Origin: Acidimicrobiia bacterium | GTDB taxonomy: Bacteria; Actinomycetota; Acidimicrobiia; IMCC26256; JAENVU01 | DNA: 64,000 nucleotides | Direction of reading: 5' to 3' | Assembly (NCBI GenBank): GCA_038250905.1 | Contig: JBBSBV010000004.1 | Location: forward strand, 66,588 to 130,587 | Part shown: positions 15,781 through 62,274 of the stretch, one piece after another | Layout: each line of letters starts with the position of its first letter | Position numbering within the stretch: position 1 is the first letter of the stretch | Made by a program: the position numbers and the translations under genes | The notes under the pieces: generated by a model | The model's database searches: none | Seen by the model: the letters and a program-made list of their open reading frames with translations, nothing else | Told to the model about the DNA's origin: nothing

Positions 15781-16425
15781 CCGGGCCAGGAGGGCGGCGT
15801 CGAGGACCTCGACGCGTCCACGCGTGAGGGCGAGGATGCCGGCGTCGGCCGCTCCCTTCAACACCCGGTTCGCGGTGGGGCGGGTCGTCCCCGCCATCGA
15901 GGCGATGTCGTCCTGGGTGACCGGGATGCTCGCCGGCCCGCCCCCGCCGAAGAGCGTGGCGAGGTCGAGGACCCGGCGCAGGACGCGGGTCTCCGCCGGC
16001 ACGTAGAGCGCCTCGGTGAGCCGGTCGGAGAGGCGCCGGACCTGGGCCGCGAGCAGGTCGATGAGGACGAGCGCGACCTCGGGATGGTCGTGCACGAGGT
16101 CGGAGAACTCGGCGCGTCGCACGGCGCGGGTCTCGGTCGGGTCGAGGGCGACGGCACTCGCGGTCCTGCGGGCGTCCGCGGTGAGGAGCGCCTGTTCTCC
16201 GAATGCATCGCCCGGGCCGAGGACGGTGTGGGTGGACACGTCGCCGAGCGCGGTACCGACACGGATCGCGACGTGGCCCTTTTCGATCAGGTGCAGGCTG
16301 TCGCCCGCGTCGCCCTCGTGGAACAGCACTTCACCTTTCGCGTATTTGCGTCGCACTGCGTTGGCGAGGACGCGTCGCCGCTCGTCTTCGGTCAGTGAGG
16401 ACAGCAGTCCCTGCTCGTCAGCCAT
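15769..16425 (-). CDS. Crp/Fnr family transcriptional regulator.
   Basis: cNMP-binding domain (GDAFGEQALL) plus a C-terminal HTH (QDDIASMAGTTRPTANRVLK). Start trimmed to the ATG (MADEQGLL). Confidence 0.85.
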   Translation of the reverse strand: MADEQGLLSSLTEDERRRVLANAVRRKYAKGEVLFHEGDAGDSLHLIEKGHVAIRVGTALGDVSTHTVLGPGDAFGEQALLTADARRTASAVALDPTETRAVRRAEFSDLVHDHPEVALVLIDLLAAQVRRLSDRLTEALYVPAETRVLRRVLDLATLFGGGGPASIPVTQDDIASMAGTTRPTANRVLKGAADAGILALTRGRVEVLDAALLARRAR

Positions 16426-16462
16426 GGTGCTGATGCTACGGGTCCGGGTCCCCGCCCCTGTG

Positions 16463-16480
16463 TGTGCAGGCGCGCACACG
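16463..16480. promoter_or_regulatory. Crp-like box GTGTGC-N6-GCACAC about 40-55 nt upstream of the Crp gene start.
   Basis: Matches TGTGA-N6-TCACA at 4 of 5 positions in each half with the correct spacing. Confidence 0.35.
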
Positions 16481-16569
16481 GCCGAGGTCGGCGCCGTGAC
16501 AGTGATCGTCCGGCCGAACCCGCATGCTGGACGGGCCGGAGCGATCCGGTCGGTGCGCCGGACAGGGGC

Positions 16570-16593
16570 GGGCCGGGGTGATTCCCCCGGCCC
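16570..16593 (-). terminator. GC-rich hairpin GGGCCGGGG-TGATTC-CCCCGGCCC (9-bp stem) 28 nt downstream of the S8 peptidase stop; candidate I-shaped terminator for the GAF-S8 operon.
   Basis: Perfect 9-bp stem; no U-tract, which is common in high-GC actinobacteria. Confidence 0.3.
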
Positions 16594-16620
16594 GTGGCGC
16601 GTTGGCGCCGGTGGGGTCGG

Positions 16621-17442
16621 TCAGGCGCGATTCGCCGCGAGTTCGGCGAGGACCGTCTTGACCTGCCAGCACGTCAGGCCGGGGTGGGCACCGAGAATGC
16701 GGGCGATCAGACCCGCGATGACCGGCGCCGCGAAGGAGTTGCCGGTAGCCGTGACGGTCGCGCCGTCGAGCCAGGGCACGTCGACCTCGACGCCGATCGC
16801 GCCCCACTCGGCCGGCGGCGCGGGGTTGGCCAAGAAGCGTTCGGGATCGTTCCCCTCGATCGCCGCCACCGAGAACACCGACGCGAACTCCGACGGGATG
16901 CTGACCTTCGGTTCGTTGGCCAACGCACTGACGAGCATCACCCGACGGTGCAGCGCCTGATCGGCGAGGTCGTGGAACGAGGCGAACCAGTCCTCGTTGG
17001 TCGTCGACAGGCTGAGGTTGATGACCTGCATCCCCGACTCGATCGCCCAGTCGATCGCGCCGGCGAAGCATCGGGCGCGACCGGTCAGGCGCTCGCCGAG
17101 TACCCGAGCGGAGTGCAGTTCGATGCCCGGCGCGAGCGACCGGATGATCCCGGCACAGGCCGTCCCGTGCCCGTAGAGATCGGCGTGGTCCTCGACCCGC
17201 ACGCGGTAACCGTCGTCCGCGCTCGCGTCCGGCTCCACGATGACGCCGCGGTCGACCCGGCCCACCGCGGGATGGTCGGCGTCGATGCCCGAGTCGATGA
17301 CGGCGACCTTCACGCCGGCGCCCAGCCCGTCGCCGTACGCCCACTCCGGAGTGATCACTCCCGGCAGGTCGAGGCCGGGCGCGGTGCCGAGGCGGTCGGG
17401 GTTGAACGCGTCGGACCAGGCCGGGAGTCCGGTGTTCGTCAC
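16621..17442 (-). CDS. S8 family (subtilisin-like) serine peptidase, no signal peptide.
   Basis: Catalytic Asp (VAVIDSGID), His (HGTACAG) and Ser (GNSFAAP) motifs in order. Confidence 0.85.
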   Translation of the reverse strand: MTNTGLPAWSDAFNPDRLGTAPGLDLPGVITPEWAYGDGLGAGVKVAVIDSGIDADHPAVGRVDRGVIVEPDASADDGYRVRVEDHADLYGHGTACAGIIRSLAPGIELHSARVLGERLTGRARCFAGAIDWAIESGMQVINLSLSTTNEDWFASFHDLADQALHRRVMLVSALANEPKVSIPSEFASVFSVAAIEGNDPERFLANPAPPAEWGAIGVEVDVPWLDGATVTATGNSFAAPVIAGLIARILGAHPGLTCWQVKTVLAELAANRA

Positions 17443-18185
17443 CGGCGGCCGCGCCGCGCCGAGGCGTACTCGAGGAAGTCCTCCAGCAGCTTCGCGGCTG
17501 CGCCGCGCTCCGCCGAGCCCAGCCGGCGGGCCGCGGCCAGCGCGGCCGTGATGCGGAGGGTCTCGGCATCGAGGTCGTGGTCCTCGGCGGCGATGGTGGC
17601 GAGGGTGCGGGCCACGTCCGGTCGGTCCGCTTCGGTGGCGGCCGCGGCGGCGCGGAGCACGGCGGTGCCGAGGTCGCTCGTCGCGCGGCCGAGGGCGAGG
17701 GCGCCGGCGGCGGCTCGGGCGAACCGGGCCGCGAGGTCGAGGGCGGCGGTGCCCGCGGGGCGGGTGCGGTCGAGCACGGAGAAGACTCCGACCACGTCGT
17801 CACCGAGCAGGACCGGTGCCACGAGCACCGACGTCGGGACGTAGCCGGTCCGCTCGGCGACGTCGGCCGCGAACCGGGCGTCGCGGGCGACGTCGTCGAC
17901 GGCGAGGGTCTCGCCGGTGGCCGCGGCGTACCCGGCGAGGCCCCGGCCCAGTGGCAGCCGCATGCCGACGACTTCGGCCGCACCCTCGCCCGAGGACGCG
18001 AGGTACTCGAGCTCCCCGGCGGTGTCGTCGACCCTCGCCATCGAACACGCGGCGGCGCCGAACGCCACCCGGGCGGGGTCCACGATCGCCTCGAGCAGCG
18101 CGCGCACTTCGGGGAGTTCCAGCGCCGTGCCGGTGGCGGCGGCGACCGCAGCTGCCTCGCGCAGTGGCGCACGCCGGGTGCTCAC
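17439..18185 (-). CDS. GAF domain-containing protein.
   Basis: GAF fold signature (LPLGRGLAGYAAATGETLAVDDV...). The ORF-track 815-aa entry is a 5' over-extension across the MFS gene; trimmed to the GTG at 18185. Stop overlaps the S8 start (ATGA). Confidence 0.6.
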   Translation of the reverse strand: MSTRRAPLREAAAVAAATGTALELPEVRALLEAIVDPARVAFGAAACSMARVDDTAGELEYLASSGEGAAEVVGMRLPLGRGLAGYAAATGETLAVDDVARDARFAADVAERTGYVPTSVLVAPVLLGDDVVGVFSVLDRTRPAGTAALDLAARFARAAAGALALGRATSDLGTAVLRAAAAATEADRPDVARTLATIAAEDHDLDAETLRITAALAAARRLGSAERGAAAKLLEDFLEYASARRGRR

Positions 18186-18232
18186 CGGCCGCAGCCGTCG
18201 ATCGAACAATGTCCCGTGATCACCCGCGGATG

Positions 18233-19993
18233 CTACCGACGGTATTGCGGGGTGCGGGCCAACCGGGTGGCGACCGTGGTGACCATGGCCCCGGGCATGG
18301 GCGCGGGGCCCGCCAGCGCGTCGAGGAAGACCGCGCCGGAGATGCGCCAGACCACGGCCTCGGTCGTCGCGACGACCGAGGCCGTCCGCGGGATCTGCTC
18401 GATGAGCCCGATCTCGCCGAACACGTCGCCCGGCTCCATCTGGTTGATCAACGTGCTGCCGGCGGCGGTCACCGCACTCAGCACGTCGAACGTCCCCGCC
18501 CGGATCACGAAGAGGTCGTCCGCCGCGTCGCCCTCGTGGATGACGGTCGCGCCGGCGGCCACGTGCTCCTCCACGCGCACTGCGGCGAGGCGTTCGAGTG
18601 CAGCTCGGGACGCGCCGACGAACATCGGGATCGTGGCCAGGACGTCGACGATCGGTGCGAGGACTTCGGCGCGGCCGGCGGCGGCGGCATCGAGAGGTCG
18701 CAGCGCCGGGAGCGCGAACGCGGCACCCACCGCGAGCACGAGTCCGAGACCGGCCAGGGTGCTGTCCAACCCGACCAGGGCGACGAGCGGGGGGACGATC
18801 GCGCCGCCGACCAGCGTGGCCGCCGCATTGACCGAGTCCGTCAGTCCGTAGACGCGACCGAGCACGTCGGGATCCACCGACCGCTGGATGAGGGTGATGG
18901 CAGACACCTCGAAGAGGATCAGCGCGATGCCTTCGACGAACGCGACCGCGAGGGCCGGCACGAGTGACCGGGGGAGTGCGAGGAGCGCCACCGACGCGCC
19001 GGTCAGGATCACGCTGCCACCGAAGAGGTTGGCGAGGTGGGCCCGGCCGACGAGGCGCGCGGTGAACGGCGCGACGATCAGACCACCGAGCCCCATCGCG
19101 GCGCCGAGGAGACCGACCCCTTGTGGCCCGGTGCCCAGGTTGTGGGCCGCGACGAGCACTTTGAGCACCTCCTCCGCGCCGTAGGCGAGGAGGGATCCGG
19201 CCAGCACCGCCGAGTAGACGGTGAGCCCGGGGGTGTTGCGGAGCGCCCGCCAGCCCACTGCGAGTTCGTCTCGCAACCCGGCGCGCCCGCGGCCTTCGTC
19301 GGCGCCGATGTCCTGCTCGGGAATGTCCTGCTCGGGGGTGTCGTGCTCCGGGTCGTCGATCCCGGTCGGGGCCGACGCCGTCCGGCCACCGCCAGCCGAA
19401 CGCACGCCGGCCACGAGGAGGCCCGACGCGAGGAAGGTGATGGCGTTGAACCCGAACGCGGCCTGGACCGAGGTGGTCTCCAGGAGGAGCGTGGCCAGCG
19501 CCGGACCGAGGAACACCGTGAGTTGGTTGACGACGGTCTCGAGCGCGTTGGCCGCGGCCAGATCGTCCTCGCCCACCACGCGCGGTGTCGACGCGACGAC
19601 GGCCGGGCGGTACACCGCGCTCATCACGTTGGCCAGGAAGGCGATCGCGGCACCGGCCAGCACCGGGCCGTCGACCGCCACGACGATGATGAGCGGGATC
19701 ATCATCACCGCGCGGCCGACGTCGAGTGCGACCATGAGCCGTCGGCGGTCGACCCGGTCGGCCACCACTCCGCCGACGGCACCGAAGAGCACGTAGGGCA
19801 CCACGCGGAGTACGAACACCGCGGCGACCCAGGTGCTCGAGCCCGTGCGCTGGAGCACCCACACGGTCAACGCGATGGAGTAACACCAGTCACCCGTCCA
19901 CGAAACGGCGTAGCTGCCGAGCAGGCGCCGGAACTCGCGATGACGCAACGCGTCACGAAAGCCGGCGTGTTGTCGCTCGTTGGTGTCGGTCAT
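18233..19993 (-). CDS. MFS transporter fused to a C-terminal cyclic-nucleotide-binding domain.
   Basis: Twelve-TM MFS core followed by a cNMP-binding domain (FGEIGLI...RTASVVA). Confidence 0.85.
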   Translation of the reverse strand: MTDTNERQHAGFRDALRHREFRRLLGSYAVSWTGDWCYSIALTVWVLQRTGSSTWVAAVFVLRVVPYVLFGAVGGVVADRVDRRRLMVALDVGRAVMMIPLIIVVAVDGPVLAGAAIAFLANVMSAVYRPAVVASTPRVVGEDDLAAANALETVVNQLTVFLGPALATLLLETTSVQAAFGFNAITFLASGLLVAGVRSAGGGRTASAPTGIDDPEHDTPEQDIPEQDIGADEGRGRAGLRDELAVGWRALRNTPGLTVYSAVLAGSLLAYGAEEVLKVLVAAHNLGTGPQGVGLLGAAMGLGGLIVAPFTARLVGRAHLANLFGGSVILTGASVALLALPRSLVPALAVAFVEGIALILFEVSAITLIQRSVDPDVLGRVYGLTDSVNAAATLVGGAIVPPLVALVGLDSTLAGLGLVLAVGAAFALPALRPLDAAAAGRAEVLAPIVDVLATIPMFVGASRAALERLAAVRVEEHVAAGATVIHEGDAADDLFVIRAGTFDVLSAVTAAGSTLINQMEPGDVFGEIGLIEQIPRTASVVATTEAVVWRISGAVFLDALAGPAPMPGAMVTTVATRLARTPQYRR

Positions 19994-20091
19994 GCCCTGC
20001 GCCCCCCGGCGGGGGATCGTAGGGCGGCCGCGACCCCACTCCGTCCGCCCTGCCTGGTCAGCCCCTGTCTCGTCAGCGACGCCGCGAGCCG

Positions 20092-20973
20092 GTGGTGGTG
20101 ACCCAGGTCGACGCGCGCCAGACTTCCGCGGTGGAGAACCTCCCCGCGCTCGACGATCGGTTCACGATCGCGGCCGAGTCCCTCGAGGGGTTCCGTCGTG
20201 ACGGTCACGTGCGCATCGACGGACTCGCGAGCGAGGCCGAAGTGGCACGGTTCCGTCCGGCCATCGAGACCACCGCCGAACGGGTCCGGTGGGACCGGCG
20301 ACCGATCGAGGAGCGCGACACCTACGGGAAGGCGTTCGTCCAGGCGGCGAACCTCTGGCAGCACGATCCGGTCGTGGCGCAGTTCACGCTGGCGCCACGG
20401 TTCGGCGCGGTGGCGGCGGCACTGCTGGGCGTCGACCGCGTTCGGATCTACCACGATCAGGCGCTCCTCAAGGAGCCTGGTGGCGGCCACACTCCCTGGC
20501 ACCAGGACCAGTACTACTGGCCGCTCGACACGCTCGACACCGTCACGATGTGGATGCCGCTCGTCGCGGTGGTCGATCCGGTCGAGGGTATGACCTTCGG
20601 GAACGGCACCCACGGGCAGGGCGATCTCGGCGGTGGCGTGATCTCGGACGATTCGGATCGACGCTTCGAGGCGCTCGTCGCGGCCCGGGCGATCGGGTTG
20701 CACACGTACCGCGGATTCCGTCCCGGCGACACGACGTTCCACCGGGGCTGGACGCTGCACCGGGCCTCCGCGAATCCGACCGAACGCGTGCGATCGGTGA
20801 TGACGGTGATCTACGTCGCCGACGGCGCCCGGGTGGCGGTGCCCGCCGGCCCGGCCCAGGAGTTCGATCGCCGACTCTGGCTCGGCGGGCAGGATCCCGG
20901 TACACCGGTGGGCGGGGACGGGAACCCGCTCATCGCTCGCACCCGGGGTGCAAACCGTCCGGATCGGACATAG
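20092..20973 (+). CDS. Phytanoyl-CoA dioxygenase (PhyH) family Fe(II)/2-oxoglutarate oxygenase.
   Basis: PhyH-type HxD...H facial triad region (WHQDQYYWPLD...). Confidence 0.8.
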   Translation: MVVTQVDARQTSAVENLPALDDRFTIAAESLEGFRRDGHVRIDGLASEAEVARFRPAIETTAERVRWDRRPIEERDTYGKAFVQAANLWQHDPVVAQFTLAPRFGAVAAALLGVDRVRIYHDQALLKEPGGGHTPWHQDQYYWPLDTLDTVTMWMPLVAVVDPVEGMTFGNGTHGQGDLGGGVISDDSDRRFEALVAARAIGLHTYRGFRPGDTTFHRGWTLHRASANPTERVRSVMTVIYVADGARVAVPAGPAQEFDRRLWLGGQDPGTPVGGDGNPLIARTRGANRPDRT

Positions 20974-26431: not shown

Positions 26432-27010
26432 ATGGCGAGTCCAACGTTCCCGATCACCGGCGACGCCGAGGCCGATCAGCTGCTCGTCGACGAGCCGCTC
26501 GCGCTGGTACTCGGAATGCTGCTCGACCAGCAGGTGCCGATGGAGTGGGCGTTCAAGGGCCCCGCCACGCTGAAGCGGCGGCTCGGGGCGCTCGACGCCG
26601 CGGCGATGGCCGAGATGACCCCGGACGCGATCGACGAGGTCTTCCGCGAGAAGCCGGCGGTCCACCGCTTCCCGTCGGCGATGGCCAAGCGTGCCCACGC
26701 ACTGTGTCAGCACCTGGTGGACGAGTACGACGGCGACGCGGCGAACATCTGGCGCGGGGTGACCGATCCCTCCGAGCTCTTCGACCGCATCCGGGCCCTC
26801 CCCGGCTACGGCGACGAGAAGGCCAAGATCTTCCTCGCGATCCTCGGGAAGCGACTCGGTGTGGCACCGGTCGGGTGGGAGCAGTACGCCGGACCCTTCG
26901 GTGACCCCACCCCGCGATCGGTGGCCGATATCGACTCCCGCGAGGCCTTCGCCCGGGTCCGGGCGTGGAAGAAGCAACAGAAGGCCCTGGGCAAGAAGAA
27001 GTCCGAATAG
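26432..27010 (+). CDS. HhH-GPD family base-excision DNA repair protein.
   Basis: Helix-hairpin-helix with a Gly/Pro-rich loop (LPGYGDEKAKIFL) and a conserved catalytic Asp region, 192 aa. Confidence 0.65.
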   Translation: MASPTFPITGDAEADQLLVDEPLALVLGMLLDQQVPMEWAFKGPATLKRRLGALDAAAMAEMTPDAIDEVFREKPAVHRFPSAMAKRAHALCQHLVDEYDGDAANIWRGVTDPSELFDRIRALPGYGDEKAKIFLAILGKRLGVAPVGWEQYAGPFGDPTPRSVADIDSREAFARVRAWKKQQKALGKKKSE

Positions 27011-27013: not shown

Positions 27014-27033
27014 ACTGCACACAGCGTGCAACT
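27014..27033. promoter_or_regulatory. TGCAC-ACAGC-GTGCAA palindrome about 45 nt upstream of the lipoprotein gene at 27074 (site 3 of the TTGCAC-N5-GTGCAA motif).
   Basis: Same half-sites and 5-nt spacer as sites 1 and 2. Confidence 0.4.
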
Positions 27034-27073
27034 TTCGGTAGGGTGACGGGACTTGCCGAGTTGGGGGTTCCCT

Positions 27074-27937
27074 GTGCGTGTGTCTCGTTCGTTGTCGTCC
27101 GCAGTCGTCGGACTGGCGGTCGTCGTGGGCCTTGCCGCCTGCGGCAGCAGCAGTTCCAAGGGTGCGGCATCGACCAGCCCCTCCACGTCCGGCGGCATGT
27201 CCGCGCAGGAGATGCTGTGTATGTCCCAGCACTACCGCCAGGACAACCCGAGCAAGTGCAAGACCAGCGCGGCGGACACCGGGCCGGCCTACACGCTCGC
27301 CAACCCGCTGAAGACCGAGCCCGACGGCACCGTCGACCCGACGTCGGTGAACCTCTCCGGAGTCAAGGGCGTGACGCCGGAGCAGCAGAAGCTCGCGACC
27401 AACCTGCTCGTCTCCACCATCAAGACGCTCCCGAAGTGGGACGACATCAACCAGGCGAAGGCCGACGGCTTCCAGTCGATCGGTGACGGCCTCACCGGTG
27501 AGGAGCACCTCCTGCACTGGGACTGGATCAACGACAACACGATCTTCGATCCGAACCACCCGGAGTCGCTCGTCTACAAGGTCGACCGCGCCACCGGGAC
27601 CAAGACGCTCGAAGCCGCGATGTACATCCTCCCGAAGCAGTACACGTTCGACAACCCGCCGCCGATCAACAGCCCACTCGTGCAGTTCCACTACCACGAC
27701 AACCTGTGCTTCACGGCGGCGACGGCCACCGACGGCCCGATGGTGCGTGGGCTCACGGATGCGCAAGGCAACTGCCCGCCCGGGCTCACGAAGTTCGACC
27801 CGAACATCCAGGTGCACGTGTGGATCCGGCCGAACGACTGCGGTCCGTTCGCGGCGCTTCTCGGTGTGGGTGCCGGGCAGATCAAGGACGGCGCGACGCG
27901 CTCCTGCGTCCACAGCCACACCCGCCTCGGGTTGTAA
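27074..27937 (+). CDS. Hypothetical lipoprotein (secreted, Cys-rich).
   Basis: GTG start with a GGGGG RBS and a lipobox (LAAC). Mature protein carries several Cys pairs; no recognisable family. Confidence 0.55.
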   Translation: MRVSRSLSSAVVGLAVVVGLAACGSSSSKGAASTSPSTSGGMSAQEMLCMSQHYRQDNPSKCKTSAADTGPAYTLANPLKTEPDGTVDPTSVNLSGVKGVTPEQQKLATNLLVSTIKTLPKWDDINQAKADGFQSIGDGLTGEEHLLHWDWINDNTIFDPNHPESLVYKVDRATGTKTLEAAMYILPKQYTFDNPPPINSPLVQFHYHDNLCFTAATATDGPMVRGLTDAQGNCPPGLTKFDPNIQVHVWIRPNDCGPFAALLGVGAGQIKDGATRSCVHSHTRLGL

Positions 27938-37375: not shown

Positions 37376-38620
37376 TCAGACCGAGATCGCGCGCGGGGTG
37401 GCGGCGACGCGATGGTGGAGCCCACGAAGCGCGAGCCCACCCGCGACGATGGCGGTCACGCCGCCGACGACGAGGCCGGAGCGGGGCCCGAAGACCTGCG
37501 ACACCGCACCGATGATCGGCGCGCCGATCGGCGTGGAGCCGAGGAACGCCACCGCGAACAGGGCCGCGACCCGACCGCGGTACGCGGGCTCGGCGCGGCT
37601 CTGGGCGAGGGCACCGGCCGCGGACAGGAATCCGATCGAGGAGGCGCCCATCGGGACGAGCACGATCGCGAACACCACGATCGACGGCGTCGCCGCCGCG
37701 GTCATCATGCACACGCCCAGGATGAGGGCGGCGACGATCACGAATCGGGTGGTGACCCGCTCGCGGTGCGCGACGTACAAGGAGGCGACGACTGCACCGA
37801 CGCTCATGAGGGCGAGGAGGCTTGCGAACGTGCTCGCACCGCCGTGGAACGCCTTGCGGGCCATCAGCGAGACCGTCACCTGGAAGTTGAACGACAGGGT
37901 GCCGATGATCGCGGTCAGCAACAGCGTGGTCCGCAACGCCTGGTGGCCCCATACGTACCGCAGGCCGTCGACGAGTTGGCCCCGCTGGCGGGGGACCGGT
38001 GTCACCTGGTTGACGGTGAGCAGGTCCATCGTCATGAGTGCGGCGATCACCGCAACGAACGACAACGCGTTGGCGACGAAGCACCAACCGATGCCGGCGG
38101 TGGCGATCAGGACCGCGGCGATGGTCGGCCCGATGACCCGCGCCGCCGTGAAGACCGAACTGTTCAGGCTCACGGCGTTGGCGGCGTGGTGGTCGGGGAC
38201 GAGTTCGGTGACGAAGGAGCGGCGGGCCGGACTGTCGAGCGCGGTGGCGATGCCGAAGCTCGCCGCGAGGGCGTAGACCATCCAGAGCTGGATGGATCCG
38301 GTCAGCACCAGCGCGCCCATGATGGCGGCACAGACAGCGGCGCCGGCCGACGTGGCGATCAGGAGCCGGCGCTTGTCGACGCGGTCGGCGAGCACCCCCG
38401 CCCACGCCCCGCCCAACATCACGGGAAAGAATTGCAGCGCGACGACCGTCCCGACGGCCAGACCGTTGCCGTGGGTCATGAGTACGACCAGCCACGTGAG
38501 CGCGGTCTGCTGGACCCAGGTGCCACTTGCGGAGACGAGTTGCCCGACGAGGTACTTGCGGTAGTTCGGTGTCTCGAGCGATCGGAAGGTCTGGCGTCCG
38601 GCGCGACGGATCCGGTTCAT
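37376..38620 (-). CDS. MFS transporter.
   Basis: Twelve TM helices with MFS motif A-like loops, 414 aa. Confidence 0.85.
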   Translation of the reverse strand: MNRIRRAGRQTFRSLETPNYRKYLVGQLVSASGTWVQQTALTWLVVLMTHGNGLAVGTVVALQFFPVMLGGAWAGVLADRVDKRRLLIATSAGAAVCAAIMGALVLTGSIQLWMVYALAASFGIATALDSPARRSFVTELVPDHHAANAVSLNSSVFTAARVIGPTIAAVLIATAGIGWCFVANALSFVAVIAALMTMDLLTVNQVTPVPRQRGQLVDGLRYVWGHQALRTTLLLTAIIGTLSFNFQVTVSLMARKAFHGGASTFASLLALMSVGAVVASLYVAHRERVTTRFVIVAALILGVCMMTAAATPSIVVFAIVLVPMGASSIGFLSAAGALAQSRAEPAYRGRVAALFAVAFLGSTPIGAPIIGAVSQVFGPRSGLVVGGVTAIVAGGLALRGLHHRVAATPRAISV

Positions 38621-39099
38621 GCCCGACCTTCGCGGCGGGTTCCCGGCTCGTGCTGGGCGAGGCGCTCCATGATCGCCGCGGCGCGGGCGAGCACCGTGCG
38701 GTCGGCGTCGCTGAGTTCCCGGAGCCGACGGTCGAGGAACGCGTTCTTGCGGCTCCGGTGCTGGGCCAGGAGCTTGGCGCCGACCGGCGTCACCGCCACC
38801 CGGTGGATCCGGCGGTCTTCGGGATCGATGGTGCGGGTGACGAGTCCGGCGGCCTCGAGCTTGGCGGTGAGCGCGGTCACGGTCGGAGGTTGGATCTGCT
38901 CCACGCGCGCGAGCGCGCCGAGTGTCATCGGCCCGTCCTGTTCGATCGTCGCGAGGGTCGAGAGCTGCGAGATGGTCAGGCCCGAGTCGGCGCTCTGCCG
39001 CAGTCGGCGGTGCAGGCGCGCCACGGCGAGCCGGAGACGGCTGGCCAGTTCCTGGTCGTGGGCGCGGGCCGGGGTGGGAGAAGTGGATTTGGTCGGCAT
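38617..39099 (-). CDS. MarR family transcriptional regulator.
   Basis: Winged HTH (LTISQLSTLATIEQDGPMTLGALA...). ATGA overlap with the downstream MFS gene. Confidence 0.85.
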   Translation of the reverse strand: MPTKSTSPTPARAHDQELASRLRLAVARLHRRLRQSADSGLTISQLSTLATIEQDGPMTLGALARVEQIQPPTVTALTAKLEAAGLVTRTIDPEDRRIHRVAVTPVGAKLLAQHRSRKNAFLDRRLRELSDADRTVLARAAAIMERLAQHEPGTRREGRA

Positions 39100-39132
39100 A
39101 GTTCGTCCAACAAATTAGCCTGACGAACTATT
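39097..39132. promoter_or_regulatory. Perfect 10-bp inverted repeat ATAGTTCGTC-N14-GACGAACTAT, overlapping the MarR start codon and 5' region; candidate MarR autoregulatory operator.
   Basis: Read from the sequence; AT-rich spacer, no U-tract, so it looks more like an operator than a terminator. Confidence 0.4.
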
Positions 39133-40171: not shown

Positions 40172-40975
40172 GTGACAGCCGCCCACGGGGCGTGGCACGC
40201 TCGCCGCATGGCCGAACCCGTCCCCGACATGCGCGAGTGGGGCCTGCCCGGAGCCGGGGAGTTCGACCGCGTGGTGATCGTCTCGCCCCATCTCGACGAC
40301 GCGGTGCTCGGCTGTGGCCGGTTCATGGCGCTCCATCCGGGGGTCACGGTCGTGACGCTCTACGCCGGTCGTCCCGCCGCCTACCCGGAACCCATGACCC
40401 ACTGGGACACGGTCAGCGGCTTTTCGACCGGCGACGACGTACTGGCCGTCCGTCGGGGGGAGGACGCGGCCGCGCTCGCCGTGGTCGGGGCCCGTCCCGT
40501 GTGGCTCGACGTCGTGGAGCACCAGTACCTGGACCGGGCCCACTGGGTGGGGCCCGACCGGACCGCCCAGCCGTTGGAGGCGGCCCTCCGGGCGCTCGAT
40601 CCGACGGCGGTGTTCCTACCGTTCGGGCTCGCCAATCCCGACCACGGCGCGACCCATGACGCGGGGATGGCAGTGCGCGACCGGTATCCCGACCCGGTGT
40701 GGTTCTGTTACGAGGACTCGGGCTACAAGCACATCCCGGGCCTGCTCGCCTGGCGGGTCAGCGCGCTGTTCCGCCGCAACGTGTGGCCGACCCCGGTCGC
40801 GATCGACACCGAGGGCGGTGACGGCGCGAAGCGCCGCGCGCTCGCCTGCTATCGCTCGCAGATGCGCGCGCTCGAAGCGGACTGGCAGATCGGACCCAAA
40901 CTGGGCGCGCCGGAGCAGCTGTGGCGCCTCGCACCGCCGCCCGAGGGGTGGGAAGGGCTCTCCGCGACGACGTGA
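40172..40975 (+). CDS. PIG-L / LmbE family N-acetylglucosaminyl deacetylase.
   Basis: SPHLDDAVLGCG motif is diagnostic for PIG-L. The true start may be MAEPVPD at 40208. Confidence 0.85.
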   Translation: MTAAHGAWHARRMAEPVPDMREWGLPGAGEFDRVVIVSPHLDDAVLGCGRFMALHPGVTVVTLYAGRPAAYPEPMTHWDTVSGFSTGDDVLAVRRGEDAAALAVVGARPVWLDVVEHQYLDRAHWVGPDRTAQPLEAALRALDPTAVFLPFGLANPDHGATHDAGMAVRDRYPDPVWFCYEDSGYKHIPGLLAWRVSALFRRNVWPTPVAIDTEGGDGAKRRALACYRSQMRALEADWQIGPKLGAPEQLWRLAPPPEGWEGLSATT

Positions 40976-40995
40976 CAACGGGCGCGTTCGCGCCT

Positions 40996-41018
40996 AGATT
41001 GCACAGGTCGTGCAATCT
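40996..41018. promoter_or_regulatory. Perfect 9-5-9 palindrome AGATTGCAC-AGGTC-GTGCAATCT about 20 nt upstream of the secreted-protein gene start; candidate operator (site 1).
   Basis: Read from the sequence; shares the 15-mer TTGCACAGGTCGTGC with the site at 51254. Confidence 0.5.
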
Positions 41019-41036
41019 TTCTTGGGGGGAAACACC

Positions 41037-41984
41037 ATGGCGTCTCGGCCTACTCGTCAACGCTGGATGCGTGCGCTCGCGGGCGTCGCCATCGCCTCGG
41101 TCGTGGCGCTCGCCGCCGTGCCGGCCTTCGCGCACGACAGCAGTTCGAAGAGCAAGAAGTCGTCGAAGTGCCAGGAGATGTCCGGCATGGACATGTGCGG
41201 CAACGGCGTGTACCACGGCAAGGCCTCGAACACCCTGAAGCCGGGCACGATGCACACGATCGACGGTGCGCTCACCGGCGACTCGCCGTGTGAGAAGTCG
41301 GGTCCGCCGGCGTCGGTGGGTCAGGTCAAGAAGGACGCGGAGGGTCACGACCACCGCGGCCCGCTCTACCAGTACCCGGTCTCCAAGGCCGACCGCGAGA
41401 CCTTGATCCAGCAGCAGACCCAGGCGCGGGCCGTGGCGGACAAGTACCCGACCGTCGCGTCGGCCGAGGCCGCGGGCTACCGCAAGTCGACGGTGTACGT
41501 GCCGTGTATCGGCGCCCACTACACGAACACCAGCCTGGTCGGGAAGTTCGACCCGTCGGCCCCGTCCGAGTTGCTGTTCGACGGTGACACGCCCGACGCC
41601 AAGATCGTGGGCCTGAGCTTCCTGCTCCTGCACCCGGGCGGCCCACCCGAGGGCTTCGCCGGACCGAACGACATGTGGCACCAGCACAACGCCAACGGCG
41701 GACTCTGCCTCAACGCGTCCGGCGTGGTCATCGGCGCGGAGTCGACCAGCACGAAGGACTGCACCGCTCGCGGTGGCAAGAAGGCCGCTCTGGCCGACAT
41801 CTGGATGGTGCACGACTGGGTCGTGCCGGGCTGGGAATGCAGCTGGGGCGTCTTCGCCGGCGAGTGCCCGGAACTCGGTGGTCGGATCGGCGGCACCGCG
41901 TTCGACAAGCCGGACCCGAAGGCGACCAAGCAGGCGCTCGCCGGCAAGGCCAAGAGCACCAAGTCCAAGGCCAAGTCGAGCTGA
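41037..41984 (+). CDS. Secreted hypothetical protein (His/Cys-containing, Lys-rich tail).
   Basis: GGGGGG RBS, ATG, and a signal peptide (MRALAGVAIASVVALAAVPAFA). No recognised family. Confidence 0.55.
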   Translation: MASRPTRQRWMRALAGVAIASVVALAAVPAFAHDSSSKSKKSSKCQEMSGMDMCGNGVYHGKASNTLKPGTMHTIDGALTGDSPCEKSGPPASVGQVKKDAEGHDHRGPLYQYPVSKADRETLIQQQTQARAVADKYPTVASAEAAGYRKSTVYVPCIGAHYTNTSLVGKFDPSAPSELLFDGDTPDAKIVGLSFLLLHPGGPPEGFAGPNDMWHQHNANGGLCLNASGVVIGAESTSTKDCTARGGKKAALADIWMVHDWVVPGWECSWGVFAGECPELGGRIGGTAFDKPDPKATKQALAGKAKSTKSKAKSS

Positions 41985-45556: not shown

Positions 45557-46717
<1,161 letters not shown>

Positions 46718-50456: not shown

Positions 50457-51182
50457 TCACGCGATCTCGTAGACGACCTTCACGTGGATCTGCATGTCCT
50501 GGGTCCCCGCCGAAACGGGAATCCCGGCCGACGCGTTGCGGGCCAGATCGGCCTGCGCGAACGAAACGCCCGTCGGAACCGGGTCTCGCTCCTCGACGAT
50601 CGTGCGCACCGCGCCGAGATGCACGTGCGCGGCGGACGCGAGTTGCGCGGCCTGGTCGTGGGCGGCGACGACCGCTCGCGTGCGGGCCTGGCGGACGACG
50701 GGTCCGGTGTCCTCGATCGACAACTCGATCGAATCGACGCGGAGGTCGTCGCCCCCGAGCTTGGCCGCGGCGTCGATCACCTTGCCGGCGTTGGGCACGT
50801 CGTGGGTCTTGGCGGTCATGCGGGTGGAGACGGTGTAACCGGTGATGTGGCCGTGGTTGTCGAACGTGGGATACATCGAGATGTTGGACGTCTGGATGTC
50901 CCGCTCGGGTACGCCGACGAACTTCAGCGCGTTGGTCACGCCGTCGACGCGCTGCGCGTTGTTGGCCAACGCCTCGGTGGCGGAGGCACCCCGCGAGTCG
51001 GCGCCGAGCCGGATGACGGCGGTGTCCGGGACACCCGCCGCGGTGCCGGTGGAGCTGCCGGTGATCGTGCGGACCGGGCGATCGGATGCCGCATCGGCAG
51101 TGGCGGGGGAGCAGGCGGTGATCGCGAGCAACGCGGCGATCGATCCGAGGATGGGCAGGACACAGGTCGATCGCGGGTGCAT
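50457..51182 (-). CDS. SIMPL (DUF541, BP26/Omp28-like) domain lipoprotein.
   Basis: Lipobox (ITAC) then a SIMPL domain. Start trimmed to the ATG (MHPRST) at 51182. Confidence 0.7.
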   Translation of the reverse strand: MHPRSTCVLPILGSIAALLAITACSPATADAASDRPVRTITGSSTGTAAGVPDTAVIRLGADSRGASATEALANNAQRVDGVTNALKFVGVPERDIQTSNISMYPTFDNHGHITGYTVSTRMTAKTHDVPNAGKVIDAAAKLGGDDLRVDSIELSIEDTGPVVRQARTRAVVAAHDQAAQLASAAHVHLGAVRTIVEERDPVPTGVSFAQADLARNASAGIPVSAGTQDMQIHVKVVYEIA

Positions 51183-51250
51183 GGCACACCTTCCGGGCAG
51201 CGTTCGGGACGCCGCTATGACGGTTGGCCGCCGCGCCCGGTTCCCGGAAG

Positions 51251-51275
51251 TTGTTGCACAGGTCGTGCTGATTGC
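51251..51275. promoter_or_regulatory. Second copy of the TTGCACAGGTCGTGC 15-mer, in the divergent promoter region between the SIMPL lipoprotein and the PH-domain membrane protein (site 2).
   Basis: Exact 15-nt match to site 1; a further TTGCA half-site lies 4 nt downstream. Confidence 0.45.
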
Positions 51276-51322: not shown

Positions 51323-51859
51323 ATGCCTGAGCTGAGTGCCGATTCCACAGTCGCACCCGCTCCGGTTGTCGCCCCTGACAACCGGCCGGCGAGTGGCCCG
51401 ACGCTGACGCTCCGGCCGCGCCTGGTGTTCCGGTTGGCCGGACCCCTGTTGATCGTGCTCGGGGTGGCCGGTGTGGCCGCCGGATACCTCGCGGCCACCG
51501 CGATCGCGGTGATCGGCGTGTTCGGCCTGGTCGCCTGGCTCCAGCGAGTCTCGATCGACGAGCACCAGGTCGTCATCCGGGGTGTGCGCTCCTCGACCAC
51601 CCTGCCCATCGACGCGATCGACGAGGTCCGGCTCCGGCGGGTCCCGTTCGGCCCCAAGCACGGGCTGCGCAAGAGCTATCGGTTCGGCCCGTTCTCGTCG
51701 ACGCCCATCCGACTCCGGCTGATCCGCGCCGACGTCACCCTCGTGCAACTCACCGCCGTCTACTGGGAGGGCTGGGCCGGTCTGGTCCGCTACCTCCTCG
51801 CCGTTCCCGCGATCGATTCCGACAGCCGCACCCGCGGCCGCCTGGAGCGGTACGGCTGA
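51323..51859 (+). CDS. Membrane protein with two TM helices followed by a bacterial PH-like domain.
   Basis: Two adjacent TM helices then a beta-rich block (VVIRGVRSSTTLPIDAIDEVRLRR). Confidence 0.5.
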   Translation: MPELSADSTVAPAPVVAPDNRPASGPTLTLRPRLVFRLAGPLLIVLGVAGVAAGYLAATAIAVIGVFGLVAWLQRVSIDEHQVVIRGVRSSTTLPIDAIDEVRLRRVPFGPKHGLRKSYRFGPFSSTPIRLRLIRADVTLVQLTAVYWEGWAGLVRYLLAVPAIDSDSRTRGRLERYG

Positions 51860-51991
51860 CCTGTCGGGCCGTACGCTCACGCTCCTCCTCGTCATGCGTG
51901 ACGGGAGGTTCGTTCCCGGCCTGCTTGCCTCCGCAAGCTCCGGCTCGGGGGTCCCGAACGATGACGCTCGATTCTTTGCGTTCCTGACCGC

Positions 51992-52020
51992 TTGCAATCT
52001 TCAACTCGGATATTTAGTAT
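51992..52020 (+). promoter_or_regulatory. Sigma-A-like promoter TTGCAA-N17-TAGTAT positioned to give a leaderless transcript for the Rrf2-epimerase-membrane operon.
   Basis: The -10 hexamer ends 8 nt before the Rrf2 GTG start at 52029. The region is locally AT-rich. Confidence 0.4.
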
Positions 52021-52028
52021 CCGGGTTT

Positions 52029-52517
52029 GTGAAACTCTCTGATGGGATCGAGTGGGGCGTCCACGTGGCGACGTTGCTCGCGGTGCTCCCTCCGGACGCG
52101 GCCTTGCCGGCCGCTCGTCTGGCCGAGTTCCACGGGGTGCCCGCGGCGTACCTGGCCAAGCACCTGCAGGCGCTGAGCCGGGCCGGGATCCTCGAATCGG
52201 TCCAGGGCGCACGCGGGGGATACCGGCTGGCGCGCCCGGCCGCGCAGATCACGGTGCTCGACGTCGTGGAGGCCATCGACGGCACCGAGCCCGCGTTTCG
52301 CTGCCACGAGATCCGTCGGCGCGGGCCCGCGGCCCAACCTGCGAGCGCGTACCCGCTGCCGTGCGCGATCCAACGCGTGATGAGCAGCGCCGACACGGTG
52401 TGGCGCGCGTCGCTCCGCAGCGTCACCGTCGCCGACCTGGTGGCCACGGTCGCCCAGGACGCACCCCCGGCCGGCCTCGTCGCCGGCGCGCACTGGCTCC
52501 AGGAGGTACTGCCATGA
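52029..52517 (+). CDS. Rrf2 family transcriptional regulator.
   Basis: Starts VKLSDGIEWGVHVATLLA (the typical Rrf2 MKLS... start) with a winged HTH. GTG start, apparently leaderless. Confidence 0.7.
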   Translation: MKLSDGIEWGVHVATLLAVLPPDAALPAARLAEFHGVPAAYLAKHLQALSRAGILESVQGARGGYRLARPAAQITVLDVVEAIDGTEPAFRCHEIRRRGPAAQPASAYPLPCAIQRVMSSADTVWRASLRSVTVADLVATVAQDAPPAGLVAGAHWLQEVLP

Positions 52518-54867: not shown

Positions 54868-54961
54868 CGGCGGATGGTAGGCGGGGCCGAAGTCCGAGGG
54901 CTCACAGAACCATCACACGGGCATCGCGGTTTCGGCATTGACGGCATGGGAGCATCACGGG

Positions 54962-55639
54962 ATGGAGAAAGGCACCGTGCTCGTCGTCGAGGACGAACCC
55001 AACATCGCCGACCTGGTCGACCTGTACCTCAGCCGCGAGGGGTTCCGCGTGGTGAAGCAGGCCACCGGCGAGGACGGGCTGGCCGCGGTGCGGGACCAGC
55101 GGCCGCGGCTGGTGGTGCTCGACGTCGGGCTCCCCGACATCGACGGCCTCGAGGTGTGTCGCCGTATCCGGGCGACGAACGCGGTTCCGATCATCTTCCT
55201 CACCGCCCGGGCCGACGAGATCGACCGGATCCTCGGCCTGGAACTCGGTGGCGACGACTACCTCACCAAGCCGTTCGCGCCCGCCGAACTCGTCGCGCGC
55301 GTCAAGGCGGTGTTGCGTCGCACCGACGGACCCCCGTCGGCGGAGATCCTCCAAGCCGGCTCGGCGGTGGTCGACGTCGGCCGGCGCGAGATCCGGGTGG
55401 ACGACACGCCCGTCGACTTCACGACCAAGGAGTTCGAACTCCTCCGCTTCCTGGCCGACCGGCCCGGGCTCGCGATGAGCCGTCAGCAGATCCTCGACAA
55501 CGTGTGGGGTCACGACTGGTACGGCGACGAGCGGACGGTGGATGTGCACATCGCGCAGGTCCGCAAGAAGCTGGGTACCTCGTGCACCATCTCGACCGTG
55601 CGCGGCATCGGATACCGGTTGGAGCCGACACCGCGGTGA
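54962..55639 (+). CDS. OmpR-family response regulator.
   Basis: Receiver domain (VLVVEDE...DVGLPDIDG) plus a winged-helix trans_reg_C domain. Start trimmed to MEKGTV. Confidence 0.9.
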   Translation: MEKGTVLVVEDEPNIADLVDLYLSREGFRVVKQATGEDGLAAVRDQRPRLVVLDVGLPDIDGLEVCRRIRATNAVPIIFLTARADEIDRILGLELGGDDYLTKPFAPAELVARVKAVLRRTDGPPSAEILQAGSAVVDVGRREIRVDDTPVDFTTKEFELLRFLADRPGLAMSRQQILDNVWGHDWYGDERTVDVHIAQVRKKLGTSCTISTVRGIGYRLEPTPR

Positions 55640-59612: not shown

Positions 59613-60468
59613 TCCGAACGACGACCTTCCCGGGGCGCTCGTGGTCGTCGGTACTCCGATCGGGAACCTCGGCGACCTGAGCCCGCGGGTGATCGAAGTA
59701 CTCCGCGACGCCGACGTGCTCGCGTGCGAGGACACCCGTCGGACGCGCACGCTGCTGTCCCACGCCGGACTCGCGGCCGGTGGCCGGCTGCGCTCGGTGC
59801 CGGCCCACGGCGAATCCGACAACGTGGGTTGGGTGGTCGACGCGGTCGCCGCCGGCCGTCGGGTGGCGGTGATCACCGACGCCGGCATGCCGGGGATCAG
59901 CGACCCCGGGTCCAAGCTGGTGCGGGCGTGCCTCGATGCCGGGCTCGCGGTCGAGGTGGTTCCCGGGCCCTCCGCGGTCACGACCGCGCTGGTCCTCTCC
60001 GGCCTGCCGACCGATCGGTTCGTCTTCGAGGGCTTCCTGCCCCGGAAGGGCACGACCCGGGTCGAGCGGTTGGAGGCGTTGCGCACCGAGGTGCGCACGA
60101 CGGTGCTCTTCGAATCGCCGCGCCGGGTGGCGGCCACCCTCGCCGAACTGGTCGGGTACTGCGGCGCGGACCGGCCGGCAGTGATCGCGCGGGAGCTCAC
60201 CAAGCTCCACGAAGAGGTGCGGCGGGGGACCCTGGCGGAGTTGGCGGCGGGCGCAGAGGCCGACGAACCGCGCGGGGAGTGCGTGATCGTGCTCGGCGGT
60301 GCCACTGGCGCTCCGGTCGCGGCCTCCGATGCCGAGGTCGACACTGCACTCGCGGTCGAACTCGCGGCCGGAATCTCGACGCGCGACGCCGCCGCGATCG
60401 TCAGCGCGCGCCTCGGTATGCCGCGCCGGGAGGTCTACGCGCGGGCGGTCACCCTGAAGTCGCGGTGA
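59605..60468 (+). CDS. rsmI: 16S rRNA (cytidine1402-2'-O)-methyltransferase RsmI.
   Basis: VVGTPIGNLGDLSPR and DAGMPGISDPG motifs. Start GTG at 59605; an alternative is at 59638. Confidence 0.85.
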   Translation: MRDPNDDLPGALVVVGTPIGNLGDLSPRVIEVLRDADVLACEDTRRTRTLLSHAGLAAGGRLRSVPAHGESDNVGWVVDAVAAGRRVAVITDAGMPGISDPGSKLVRACLDAGLAVEVVPGPSAVTTALVLSGLPTDRFVFEGFLPRKGTTRVERLEALRTEVRTTVLFESPRRVAATLAELVGYCGADRPAVIARELTKLHEEVRRGTLAELAAGAEADEPRGECVIVLGGATGAPVAASDAEVDTALAVELAAGISTRDAAAIVSARLGMPRREVYARAVTLKSR

Positions 60469-60694
60469 GCTTCTCCACGCACGCCGCGCACACGACTTTG
60501 CGGCTGAAGTCGCGGAGCTGGTCGCTCGAGCCGCAGAAGACGCAGCGCTGCTCCACCTTCTCCAAGGTGATGCGATCGACCTCGGCCGTCATCATCACCA
60601 GGTCGCCGACATCGATGCGGAGGGCCTTGCGCATCTCGACCGGGATCACCACGCGGCCGAGCTGATCGATCTTGCGCGCCACGCCACTCGCCAT
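60449..60694 (-). CDS. AbrB/MazE/SpoVT-type DNA-binding domain protein with a C-terminal CxxC...CxxC zinc ribbon.
   Basis: N-terminal swapped-hairpin motif (KIDQLGRVVIPVEMRK) and a C-terminal CVFCGS...CAAC motif. Confidence 0.7.
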   Translation of the reverse strand: MASGVARKIDQLGRVVIPVEMRKALRIDVGDLVMMTAEVDRITLEKVEQRCVFCGSSDQLRDFSRKVVCAACVEKLTATSG

Positions 60695-60753
60695 CTGTGT
60701 GACCCCCGCGTAAGAGACTCGGAACCGCCCGGACCGTCGGTACTGTAGGGCGC

Positions 60754-62274
60754 GTGCCTGATTCCTTCTACGTGACGACGCCGATCTACTACGTCAACGA
60801 CGCGCCACACATCGGTCACGCGTACACCACGGTCCACGCCGACGTGCTCGCCCGGTGGCGCCGTCTCCACGGCGACGACGTCCTCTTCCTCACCGGAACC
60901 GACGAACACGGGCTCAAGATCCAGCGGGCGGCCGAGGCGCGCGGCGTGAGTCCGCTGGAGTGGGCCGACACCACGAGTGCCCGGTTCCGGGATGCCTGGG
61001 CGCTGCTCGACATCAGCAACGACGACTTCATCCGCACCACCGAGCCTCGTCACCACGCCGCGGTCCAGGCCTTCCTGTCCCAGGTCTACGACAACGGCTT
61101 CATCGAGCTGGCCACGTACGAGGGGCTGTACTGCGTCGCCTGCGAGGCCTATTACACCGAAGATGATCTCGTCGACGGTTTGTGTCCGATCCATCATCGG
61201 CCGGTGGAGACGGTCACCGAGGAGAACTACTTCTTCCAGCTCTCGAAGTTCGAGCAGCCGCTGATCGAGTACTACGAGGCCAACCCGCTCGCGGTGCAGC
61301 CCGAGAGCAAGCGCAACGAGGTGCTCGGTTTCCTCCGGCAGGGATTGCGCGACTTCTCGATGAGCCGGACCTCCATCTCGTGGGGCATCCCGCTGCCGTG
61401 GGACCCCGAGCACGTCACCTACGTCTGGTACGACGCGCTCATCAACTACGCCAGCGCGGTCGGGTTCGGATCCGACCCGAGCCAGTTCGCCTACCGGTGG
61501 CCGGTCCAGTACCACCTGCTGGCGAAGGACATCCTCCGGTTCCATGCCGTCTACTGGCCGGCGATGCTGATGGCGGCGGGGCTCCCGTTGCCCGAGCACG
61601 TCTTCGCCCATGGCTACCTCTTGGTCGGGGGCGAGAAGATGAGCAAGACGAGTCTCAACAACATTGCCCCCGCCGACCTGGTTCCGGAGTTCGGCAGTGA
61701 CGGGTTCCGCTACCACTTCCTCACCGACCTCCACTTCGGGCAGGACGGCGACTTCAGTTACGAGGGCATGGTCGCCCGCTACAACGCCGACCTCGCCAAC
61801 AACTTCGGGAACCTCGCGAGTCGCGTACTCAACATGGCGGTCACCTACTGCGACGGTGTCGTGCCCGCGACGCGCGCCGACGGTCCACTCGCCGCGCAGG
61901 CCGCGCTCGCGCTCGAGGCCTACGAGGCCGCGCTCGGTGAGCTGAGGTTCGACGAAGGGTTCGGCGCGGTCTGGCAACTCATCCGCGACACCAACGCCTT
62001 CATCGAGGAGTCCGAGCCGTGGAAGACGCACAAGGCGGGCGACGCGGACGCGACCGCGGCCGTCCTCGGTGACTGCCTCGAGGTGCTGCGGATCGTTGCG
62101 TTGCTGGCATCGCCCGTGATCCCGCGGGCCGCAGCGGAGCTGTGGCGTCGGCTCGGGCTCGCGGGGACGCCGGAGGCGCAGGTGCTCCCGGCCGCCGCCG
62201 GTTGGGGTACGACCCCGACCGCCGGGAACGCACTCACCAAGGGGCCCTCGCTCTTCCCCCGCATCGACGCGTGA
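60754..62274 (+). CDS. metG: Methionine--tRNA ligase.
   Basis: HIGH motif (PHIGHAYT), KMSKS motif (KMSKT) and an anticodon-binding domain. Confidence 0.95.
   Translation: MPDSFYVTTPIYYVNDAPHIGHAYTTVHADVLARWRRLHGDDVLFLTGTDEHGLKIQRAAEARGVSPLEWADTTSARFRDAWALLDISNDDFIRTTEPRHHAAVQAFLSQVYDNGFIELATYEGLYCVACEAYYTEDDLVDGLCPIHHRPVETVTEENYFFQLSKFEQPLIEYYEANPLAVQPESKRNEVLGFLRQGLRDFSMSRTSISWGIPLPWDPEHVTYVWYDALINYASAVGFGSDPSQFAYRWPVQYHLLAKDILRFHAVYWPAMLMAAGLPLPEHVFAHGYLLVGGEKMSKTSLNNIAPADLVPEFGSDGFRYHFLTDLHFGQDGDFSYEGMVARYNADLANNFGNLASRVLNMAVTYCDGVVPATRADGPLAAQAALALEAYEAALGELRFDEGFGAVWQLIRDTNAFIEESEPWKTHKAGDADATAAVLGDCLEVLRIVALLASPVIPRAAAELWRRLGLAGTPEAQVLPAAAGWGTTPTAGNALTKGPSLFPRIDA

Follow-up and report, generated by a model that had tools for sequence, protein, structure and literature searches.

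Described operators resembling the motif

The palindrome TTGCAC-N5-GTGCAA is situated upstream of two genes for exported proteins in a 64-kb stretch of DNA from an Acidimicrobiia bacterium (contig JBBSBV010000004.1; the whole stretch analysed, 64,000 nucleotides in length, is referred to below as the window). Among published motifs it most closely resembles the Nur box of Streptomyces coelicolor, tTGCaa-N5-ttGCAA, the operator through which Nur, a Fur-family repressor that responds to nickel, acts (PMC2691836, PMC3919588). Both elements are 17-bp palindromes of the 6-5-6 type with a free 5-nt spacer, and 10 of the 12 consensus bases match, i.e. five of the six in each half-site (TTGCA and TGCAA). 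Both overlap promoters and both occur in Actinomycetota; Nur represses its targets, and repression is predicted here as well. The two differ in the innermost base of the half-site, which is A/T in the Nur box and a nearly invariant C/G here, in their targets (sodF and the nik transporters for Nur, as opposed to uncharacterised exported proteins) and in their hosts (Streptomyces as opposed to Acidimicrobiia). An identity of the target proteins as nickel-uptake proteins or superoxide dismutases found no support in Pfam, NCBIfam or PDB fold searches, none of which gave a match to the target family.

The BldD box of Streptomyces, TNAC-N5-GTNA (canonical TCAC-GCTGC-GTGA), is bound by a cyclic di-GMP-linked BldD dimer (PMC4151990). 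Like the present motif it is a pseudo-palindrome with a 5-nt spacer and an inner CAC-N5-GTG, and its sites are repressor sites that overlap promoters, as is predicted here. Its outer T/A is, however, G/C in 22 of 23 sites of the present motif, so that TNAC-N5-GTNA is not matched, and the present motif has two further conserved bases (TT/AA). The BldD regulon is developmental, whereas the genes described here encode metalloprotein-like exported proteins; no BldD-like gene was seen in this analysis. The Thermococcales glycolytic motif, TATCAC-N5-GTGATA, is bound by TrmBL1/Tgr (PMC4158304). It too is a 6-5-6 inverted repeat with an inner CAC-N5-GTG, and repression by its factor depends on the position of the site relative to the promoter. 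It differs in being archaeal, in its other outer bases and in its sugar-metabolism regulon, and no TrmB-family protein was present in the annotated part of the window.

In the mycobacterial copper regulons of the RicR/CsoR type, a 5-5-5 palindrome, TACCC-N5-GGGTA, precedes lpqS, mymT and mmcO. These regulons, like the one proposed here, are small and have a short N5 palindrome before genes for lipoproteins or exported metal-related proteins, the link to metal being inferred in the present case. The half-site is unrelated to that of the present motif, and no CsoR-family gene was seen here. A full-text literature search returned no described operator with the TTGCAC/GTGCAA sequence; the systems above are architectural analogues only.

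Acidimicrobiia are abundant in soil and freshwater and are mostly uncultured, and to our knowledge they are essentially without experimentally defined regulons. A palindromic operator that acts on a sigma-70-type promoter, as considered here, is a conventional mechanism; novelty resides in the motif, in the lineage and in the target family. The footprinted consensus, (A)TTGCAC-N5-GTGCAAT, provides a handle for finding its regulator, and the operator could help to give a physiological role to an uncharacterised family of exported proteins, with invariant His and Cys residues, that is widespread in the class.

Occurrence of the motif in the window

The window has a G+C content of 70%, and the named relatives of its proteins all come from metagenome-assembled genomes of Acidimicrobiia or Acidimicrobiales. 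It was scanned for the 17-bp (6-5-6) palindrome TTGCAC-N5-GTGCAA, with up to two mismatches allowed. The core of site S1 (40999-41015) has no mismatch and is contained in a perfect 9-5-9 palindrome of 23 bp, AGATTGCAC-AGGTC-GTGCAATCT, at 40996-41018. Sites S3 (CTGCAC-ACAGC-GTGCAA, 27015-27031) and S4 (TCGCAC-CCGGG-GTGCAA, 20937-20953) each depart from the consensus at one position, and S2 (TTGCAC-AGGTC-GTGCTG, 51254-51270) departs at two, both in the same half. A first-pass annotation of the window, made from the letters alone, had listed S1, S2 and S3; S4 is additional. The 9-5-9 palindrome, the sequence TGCAC-ACAGC-GTGCAA at 27016-27031 and the 15-mer TTGCACAGGTCGTGC at 51254-51268, all cited in that annotation, are present as sequences. 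The copy of the 15-mer in S1, which it placed at 41001-41015, is found at 40999-41013, a slip of 2 nt.

At no more than one mismatch, three matches were found in the window as against 0.02 expected, and none of 100 shuffled sequences reached three; at no more than two mismatches, four were found as against 1.0 expected, a number reached by 4 of the 100 shuffles. When spacings from 0 to 11 were compared, matches with no mismatch or one occurred only at a spacing of 5. On the strength of this enrichment over chance and of the exclusivity of the spacing, the motif in the window is real and non-random, in keeping with the earlier claim that such matches would be unlikely to arise by chance.

To score the sites, a matrix was used that had been built solely from sites of other genomes. 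S1 scored 33.1 bits, S3 22.7 bits, S2 14.0 bits, a site with three mismatches at 21026 scored 9.1 bits, and S4 scored 3.1 bits; random 64-kb sequences gave 0.11 matches at or above 14 bits and none at or above 22 bits. In 0.61 Mb of related loci (designated below by L numbers), 17 of 17 matches with at most one mismatch were situated just upstream of genes of the target family, and spacings other than 5 gave between zero and three such matches. In 2.09 Mb of related loci, all of the matrix matches of at least 18 bits were sites before target-family genes. Columns T4, C6, A7, G14, G16 and C17 were invariant in an alignment of 23 sites.

The S1 site and its promoter

The 61 nt that contain S1 separate a PIG-L deacetylase gene (40172-40975) from the gene of a signal-peptide protein (target gene 1; 41037-41984, plus strand). 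The end of the site is 18 nt from the ATG codon at 41037, close to the 20 nt or so at which the first-pass annotation had set it from a secreted-protein gene, and the signal peptide on which that label depends is present. The product is an exported protein of 315 aa, with a signal peptide ending in AFA and with invariant Cys and His residues, for which no Pfam or NCBIfam match was obtained. Target gene 1 is monocistronic, since the next gene is convergent.

A sigma-70-type promoter is predicted at 40972-41000 on the plus strand, with a -35 hexamer GTGACA (40972-40977), a 17-nt spacer and a -10 hexamer TAGATT (40995-41000). This arrangement was called by a consensus promoter scan with 9 of 12 matches and was called in none of 50 shuffles. 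The palindrome core begins with the two bases that close the -10 hexamer, and S1 spans the predicted transcription start, which falls inside the palindrome spacer. An element that extends from within the -10 hexamer across the predicted start would occupy the classic position of a repressor operator.

Orthologues of the 41037 protein were obtained from NCBI and ENA contigs and from JGI metagenomes, and a footprint set of 14 loci (L081-L090, L092, L095, L157 and L175), with protein identities of 55-84%, was aligned upstream of the gene. The pattern in these loci is cGTGACA-N17-TAGA-TTGCA(C/G)-N5-GTGCAAT-...-GGGGGG-...-ATG. Positions that are invariant, or nearly so, across the 14 sequences are the GAC of the -35 hexamer, the T, A, A, T and T of the -10 hexamer, the C-A of the left half-site and the GTGCAAT of the right. 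The 17-nt promoter spacer and the distal flanks diverge, and the 5-nt spacer of the palindrome is present as nine different sequences with both half-sites kept. The -35 hexamer is retained in L082 and L086-L088, where the stop codon of the upstream gene does not overlap it, and coding constraint therefore fails to explain its conservation. The same layout of -35, -10 and palindrome, with TTGCAC-N5-GCGCAA, was observed before four longer, membrane-anchored homologues (L099, L100, L106 and L126).

The leader between S1 and the start codon (41016-41036) contains a pyrimidine stretch, CTTTC (CTTCC in most orthologues), just upstream of the ribosome-binding site GGGGGGAA and complementary to it (GAAA or GGAAG). 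The two appear to co-vary, TTTC occurring with GAAA and CTTCC with GGAAG. The stretch could form a small hairpin with the ribosome-binding site and mask it.

The S3 site and its promoter

An HhH-GPD glycosylase gene (26432-27010) and the lipoprotein gene that is target gene 2 (27074-27937, plus strand) are separated by 63 nt, and S3 is situated in this interval. Target gene 2 is monocistronic in the window. The distance from the end of S3 to the GTG codon at 27074 is 42 nt, and about 45 nt had been estimated in the first pass; the product, of 287 aa, has the lipobox LAAC expected of the lipoprotein named there. A -10 hexamer, TAGGGT, is predicted at 27039-27044 on the plus strand, and a 17-nt spacer puts the -35 hexamer on TGCACA (27016-27021), that is, on the left half-site. 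S3 would thus cover the -35 hexamer and the promoter spacer, with its centre about 28 nt before the predicted start. Actinobacterial -10 elements are of the form TANNNT; the consensus promoter scanner made no call for this lipoprotein promoter.

The footprint set for S3 consisted of seven loci with four distinct sequences (L163, L164/L165, L166-L168 and L169), at 62-90% identity, which share the gene order PKD, HhH-GPD, lipoprotein. All of the orthologues keep cGA-CTGCAC-N5-GTGCAA, with CGACTGCAC and GTGCAA invariant, while the 5-nt spacer differs in each of the four distinct sequences. TAGGGT, TAAGGT or TACCAT is present 7-8 nt after the palindrome in all of them.

Public annotation appears to start both target genes too late. 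The NCBI call for target gene 1 (P0001, 305 aa) begins 10 codons downstream, at 41067 instead of 41037, and that for target gene 2 (P0121, 238 aa) begins at 27221 instead of 27074 and leaves out the signal peptide. The upstream starts are supported by the conservation in orthologues of the ATG at 41037 together with the GGGGGG ribosome-binding site (41024-41029), and by full-length orthologues that include the lipobox.

The target protein family

Direct comparison of the 41037 and 27074 proteins by BLASTP was marginal (E value of 0.046). Comparison of the two family alignments by hhalign gave a probability of 94.8% and an E value of 5e-8 over 125 columns, with about 25% identity over the aligned core, which indicates that target genes 1 and 2 are remote paralogues. 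Residues H161, H215, H217 and H259 of the 41037 protein are aligned with H145, H206, H208 and H248 of the 27074 protein, and C224, C242 and C268 with C212, C234 and C256; each of these is invariant in both families. Members of the family occur in secreted, lipid-anchored or membrane-anchored forms. The paralogy of the two genes strengthens the case for their co-regulation.

It had been proposed at the outset that a shared motif upstream of three exported-protein genes marks a candidate regulon. This proposal is sustained for S1 and S3, which are footprinted, overlap predicted promoters and precede paralogous targets, and not for S2, the weakest of the three. Conservation in orthologous promoters follows the same division, being observed for S1 in 14 loci and for S3 in seven, while S2 is kept in L171/L172 only.

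In one related locus (L146, 7185-7215), a family gene without the TTGCAC palindrome adjoins a divergent MarR gene, and GGGTACCCGTACCC is found downstream of its -10 hexamer. This repeat may be an alternative operator.

A proposed operator and its mode of action

Taken together, these observations suggest that TTGCAC-N5-GTGCAA is probably the operator of a homodimeric factor of the helix-turn-helix type, most likely a repressor, that controls at least two monocistronic genes for exported proteins. The centres of the half-sites are 11 bp apart and related by dyad symmetry, and consequently they would face the same side of the DNA helix, where a dimer could bind them. A dimer bound at gene 41037 would overlie both the predicted transcription start and the final bases of the -10 hexamer, and one bound at gene 27074 would overlie the -35 hexamer and the promoter spacer. 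In either position it would deny RNA polymerase access to a sigma-70-type promoter that is otherwise good, until some signal released it. Protein binding, repression and the positions of the transcription starts are the inferred components of this model. That the same half-sites are present in two promoter contexts, before homologous genes, argues for one shared trans-acting factor rather than for promoter sequence alone.

Several points weigh against this interpretation. The search for a regulator in the window and in the related loci assigned none. The left half of S1 shares two bases with the -10 hexamer and its right half is in the initially transcribed region, and part of the conservation of S1 could therefore be due to needs of the promoter or of the 5' end of the transcript. 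The centre of the operator differs between the two genes, at about +1 for S1 and about -28 for S3, both positions being predicted and both fitting repression. The robust targets are two only, and they are paralogues, so that common descent of the promoter region could account for their likeness; the flanks of S1 and S3 have no similarity other than the motif. Finally, the motif is missing in most of the more distant homologues (those at 51-61% identity and most of the other long forms).

Alternative explanations

A palindrome in such a location might instead act as a nucleic-acid hairpin, either as a terminator for the upstream PIG-L or HhH-GPD gene or as a stem-loop in the 5' untranslated region that affects translation or mRNA stability. 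S1 can indeed form a 9-bp stem (minimum free energy of -16.1 kcal/mol for 40990-41040) and is followed by TTTCTT, and both S1 and S3 are in short gaps after co-directional genes. The folding energies are, however, unexceptional (z = -1.8 for S1 and -0.2 for S3), the stem at S3 would be of 5 bp only, and no terminator-like sites were called. Covariation over the eight palindrome pairs in 23 sites was 0.061, compared with 0.083 in shuffles, of which 462 of 500 were at least as high. All of the departures from the palindrome, of which there are five kinds, break pairing (e.g. TTGCAG/GTGCAA, TTTCAC/GTGCAA, CTGCAC/GTGCAA and TTGCAC/GCGCAA), and because they are never compensated, a site for protein binding is indicated rather than a hairpin. 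Furthermore, the left arm of S1 would not be transcribed, since the predicted start is in the spacer, and the right arm alone would enter the transcript. With no terminator call, no covariation and ordinary folding energy, the hairpin or terminator explanation was rejected as extremely improbable. It is also very unlikely that the conservation reflects only the needs of the core promoter and the initial transcript, with no dedicated factor, and that the likeness of S1 and S3 is due to shared ancestry of paralogous promoters. Such an explanation would draw on the overlap of the left half of S1 with the -10 hexamer and of its right half with the predicted start region, and on the paralogy of the two target genes. 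The half-sites of S3, however, are upstream of the -10 hexamer and not downstream of it, and cannot play the same core-promoter role; dyad symmetry with a free spacer of exactly 5 nt is not a promoter property; and neutral retention of a 12-base non-coding match is implausible between protein families that are about 25% identical over their aligned core.

Binding of an activator or a dual regulator, such as a MerR-like protein at S3 or, at S2, a factor that acts from about -57, is unlikely. MerR-type operators lie between the -35 and -10 hexamers, as S3 does, and S2, about 57 nt upstream of the predicted promoters (and starts) on both of its sides, is at a typical activator position. Yet the centre of S1 coincides with the predicted start, a position from which activators normally do not act, the promoter spacer at S3 is 17-18 nt as against the 19-20 nt of MerR-type promoters, and S2 is weak and patchily conserved. 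Two regulators encoded in the window are themselves unlikely to be the factor: Rrf2 (52035-52517), which lies downstream of S2, and MarR (38617-39099), whose gene in several genomes precedes S1 by about 2 kb. Operators of the Rrf2 family are odd-length palindromes, and S2 precedes the operon that contains the Rrf2 gene. Nevertheless, the genome of L173/L175 has lost Rrf2 from this operon and kept a perfect S1, L170 has kept Rrf2 with a degraded S2, and no motif precedes the Rrf2 gene of L089; neither the distribution of S2 nor the intact S1 of the L173/L175 genome supports Rrf2 as the regulator, acting on an autoregulated operator. Synteny of the MarR gene with the S1 gene is seen in the window and in L081, L085, L089 and L175. 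Its own promoter, however, carries a different palindrome, ATAGTTCGTC-N14-GACGAACTAT, which is common to L081; L082 keeps S1 without a nearby MarR gene, and L146 has a MarR gene in divergent orientation to a family gene without the TTGCAC palindrome. MarR was rejected as the regulator on these grounds.

Candidate regulators and a possible signal

The other transcription factors encoded in the window are a Crp/Fnr protein (15769-16479), an OmpR-type response regulator (54938-55639) and an AbrB/MazE-like protein (60449-60793). Operators of the Crp/Fnr family are even-length palindromes, in contrast to the 17-mer described here. The first-pass annotation had found no obvious match to the motif among the regulators of the window, and none could be assigned in this analysis either. 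Beside the long-form homologues that carry the motif (L100, L106 and L126), no transcription factor was found; the neighbouring genes encode cytochrome P450, WS/DGAT, hydrolase and cupredoxin proteins. An aminotransferase-like gene (45557-46708), used as a query against species-representative genomes, retrieved 80 loci at 62-73% identity, with poor synteny and no motif enrichment, which made them unsuitable for footprinting.

As regards the signal, metal is the leading guess, on account of the four invariant His and several Cys residues of the targets and of the Nur box being the nearest published motif. As a tentative possibility, the repressor that acts at the palindrome could be a metal sensor, perhaps a Nur-like member of the Fur family that has diverged and is encoded elsewhere, and it would switch on an undescribed family of exported proteins that have these residues and no known fold relatives. 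If so, the family would represent a new extracytoplasmic metal-handling system specific to Acidimicrobiia. No Fur-family gene was detected by tblastn, with sequences of Escherichia coli Fur, Mycobacterium tuberculosis Zur and S. coelicolor Nur as queries, in the window or in about 1.9 Mb of related loci (L001-L162), and Pfam scans of the window, which is 64 kb of its source genome, and of the related loci revealed no Fur domain.

The palindrome before the MarR gene is a 10-14-10 inverted repeat at 39098-39131, ATAGTTCGTC-N14-GACGAACTAT, and it overlaps the MarR start codon; a similar sequence (GGTTCG...CGAACTAT) is present in L081. It is probably an autoregulatory operator for the pair formed by MarR and a major facilitator superfamily (MFS) gene.

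Weaker sites

S2 is flanked on one side by a SIMPL lipoprotein gene (50457-51182, minus strand) and on the other by an operon on the plus strand (51272 or 51323 to 52517) that comprises a small membrane-protein gene followed by the Rrf2 gene and an epimerase gene. It is only half a palindrome, the right half, GTGCTG, carrying both of its mismatches. The SIMPL assignment in the first-pass annotation was upheld (PF04402, lipobox ITAC); the label of PH-domain protein for the product of the divergent gene at 51323 was not, as that gene has no Pfam or NCBIfam match. Of three related lineages, one (L171/L172) retains S2 with a different spacer; the site is absent in L173/L174, and in L170, the closest relative at this locus, it is degraded to four mismatches. 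The AGGTC spacer common to S1 and S2 is not conserved in orthologues of either site and thus gives no evidence of function. S2 is accordingly regarded as a weak candidate site only.

An extracytoplasmic function (ECF)-type promoter for the SIMPL gene, GGGAAC-N17-CGTC (51219-51245, minus strand), has S2 just upstream of it. This promoter is kept in L170, L171 and L173, and is conserved though the rest of the SIMPL intergenic region diverges. On the other side of S2, the membrane-protein gene has in-frame start candidates at TTG 51272, GTG 51287 and ATG 51323. Codons upstream of 51323 are conserved at the protein level in the window, L170 and L171 (V-x-x-T...HNG..MP). The gene may start at TTG 51272 or GTG 51287 and not at ATG 51323, which would bring S2 right up against the start codon.

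S4 falls within the 3'-terminal part of a PhyH-family gene and is 137 nt upstream of the GTG codon (21090) of a gene for a secreted PKD/CBM96 protein of 1750 aa. Its low score arises because its mismatch falls on a T that is invariant in all of the validated sites, and in neither L166 nor L169 does a counterpart precede the PKD gene. S4 is probably not part of the system, and both it and the 3-mismatch site at 21026 were set aside as unsupported, on their low scores and, for S4, on the lack of a counterpart in these two loci.

Beside the PKD/CBM96 gene, the region 15769-20000 contains several genes of cyclic-nucleotide signalling, which encode the Crp/Fnr regulator, an MFS transporter fused to a cyclic-nucleotide (cNMP)-binding domain and a GAF-domain protein. 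In L166 (1-4000), a response regulator fused to a guanylate/adenylate cyclase domain is encoded together with a cNMP-binding protein.
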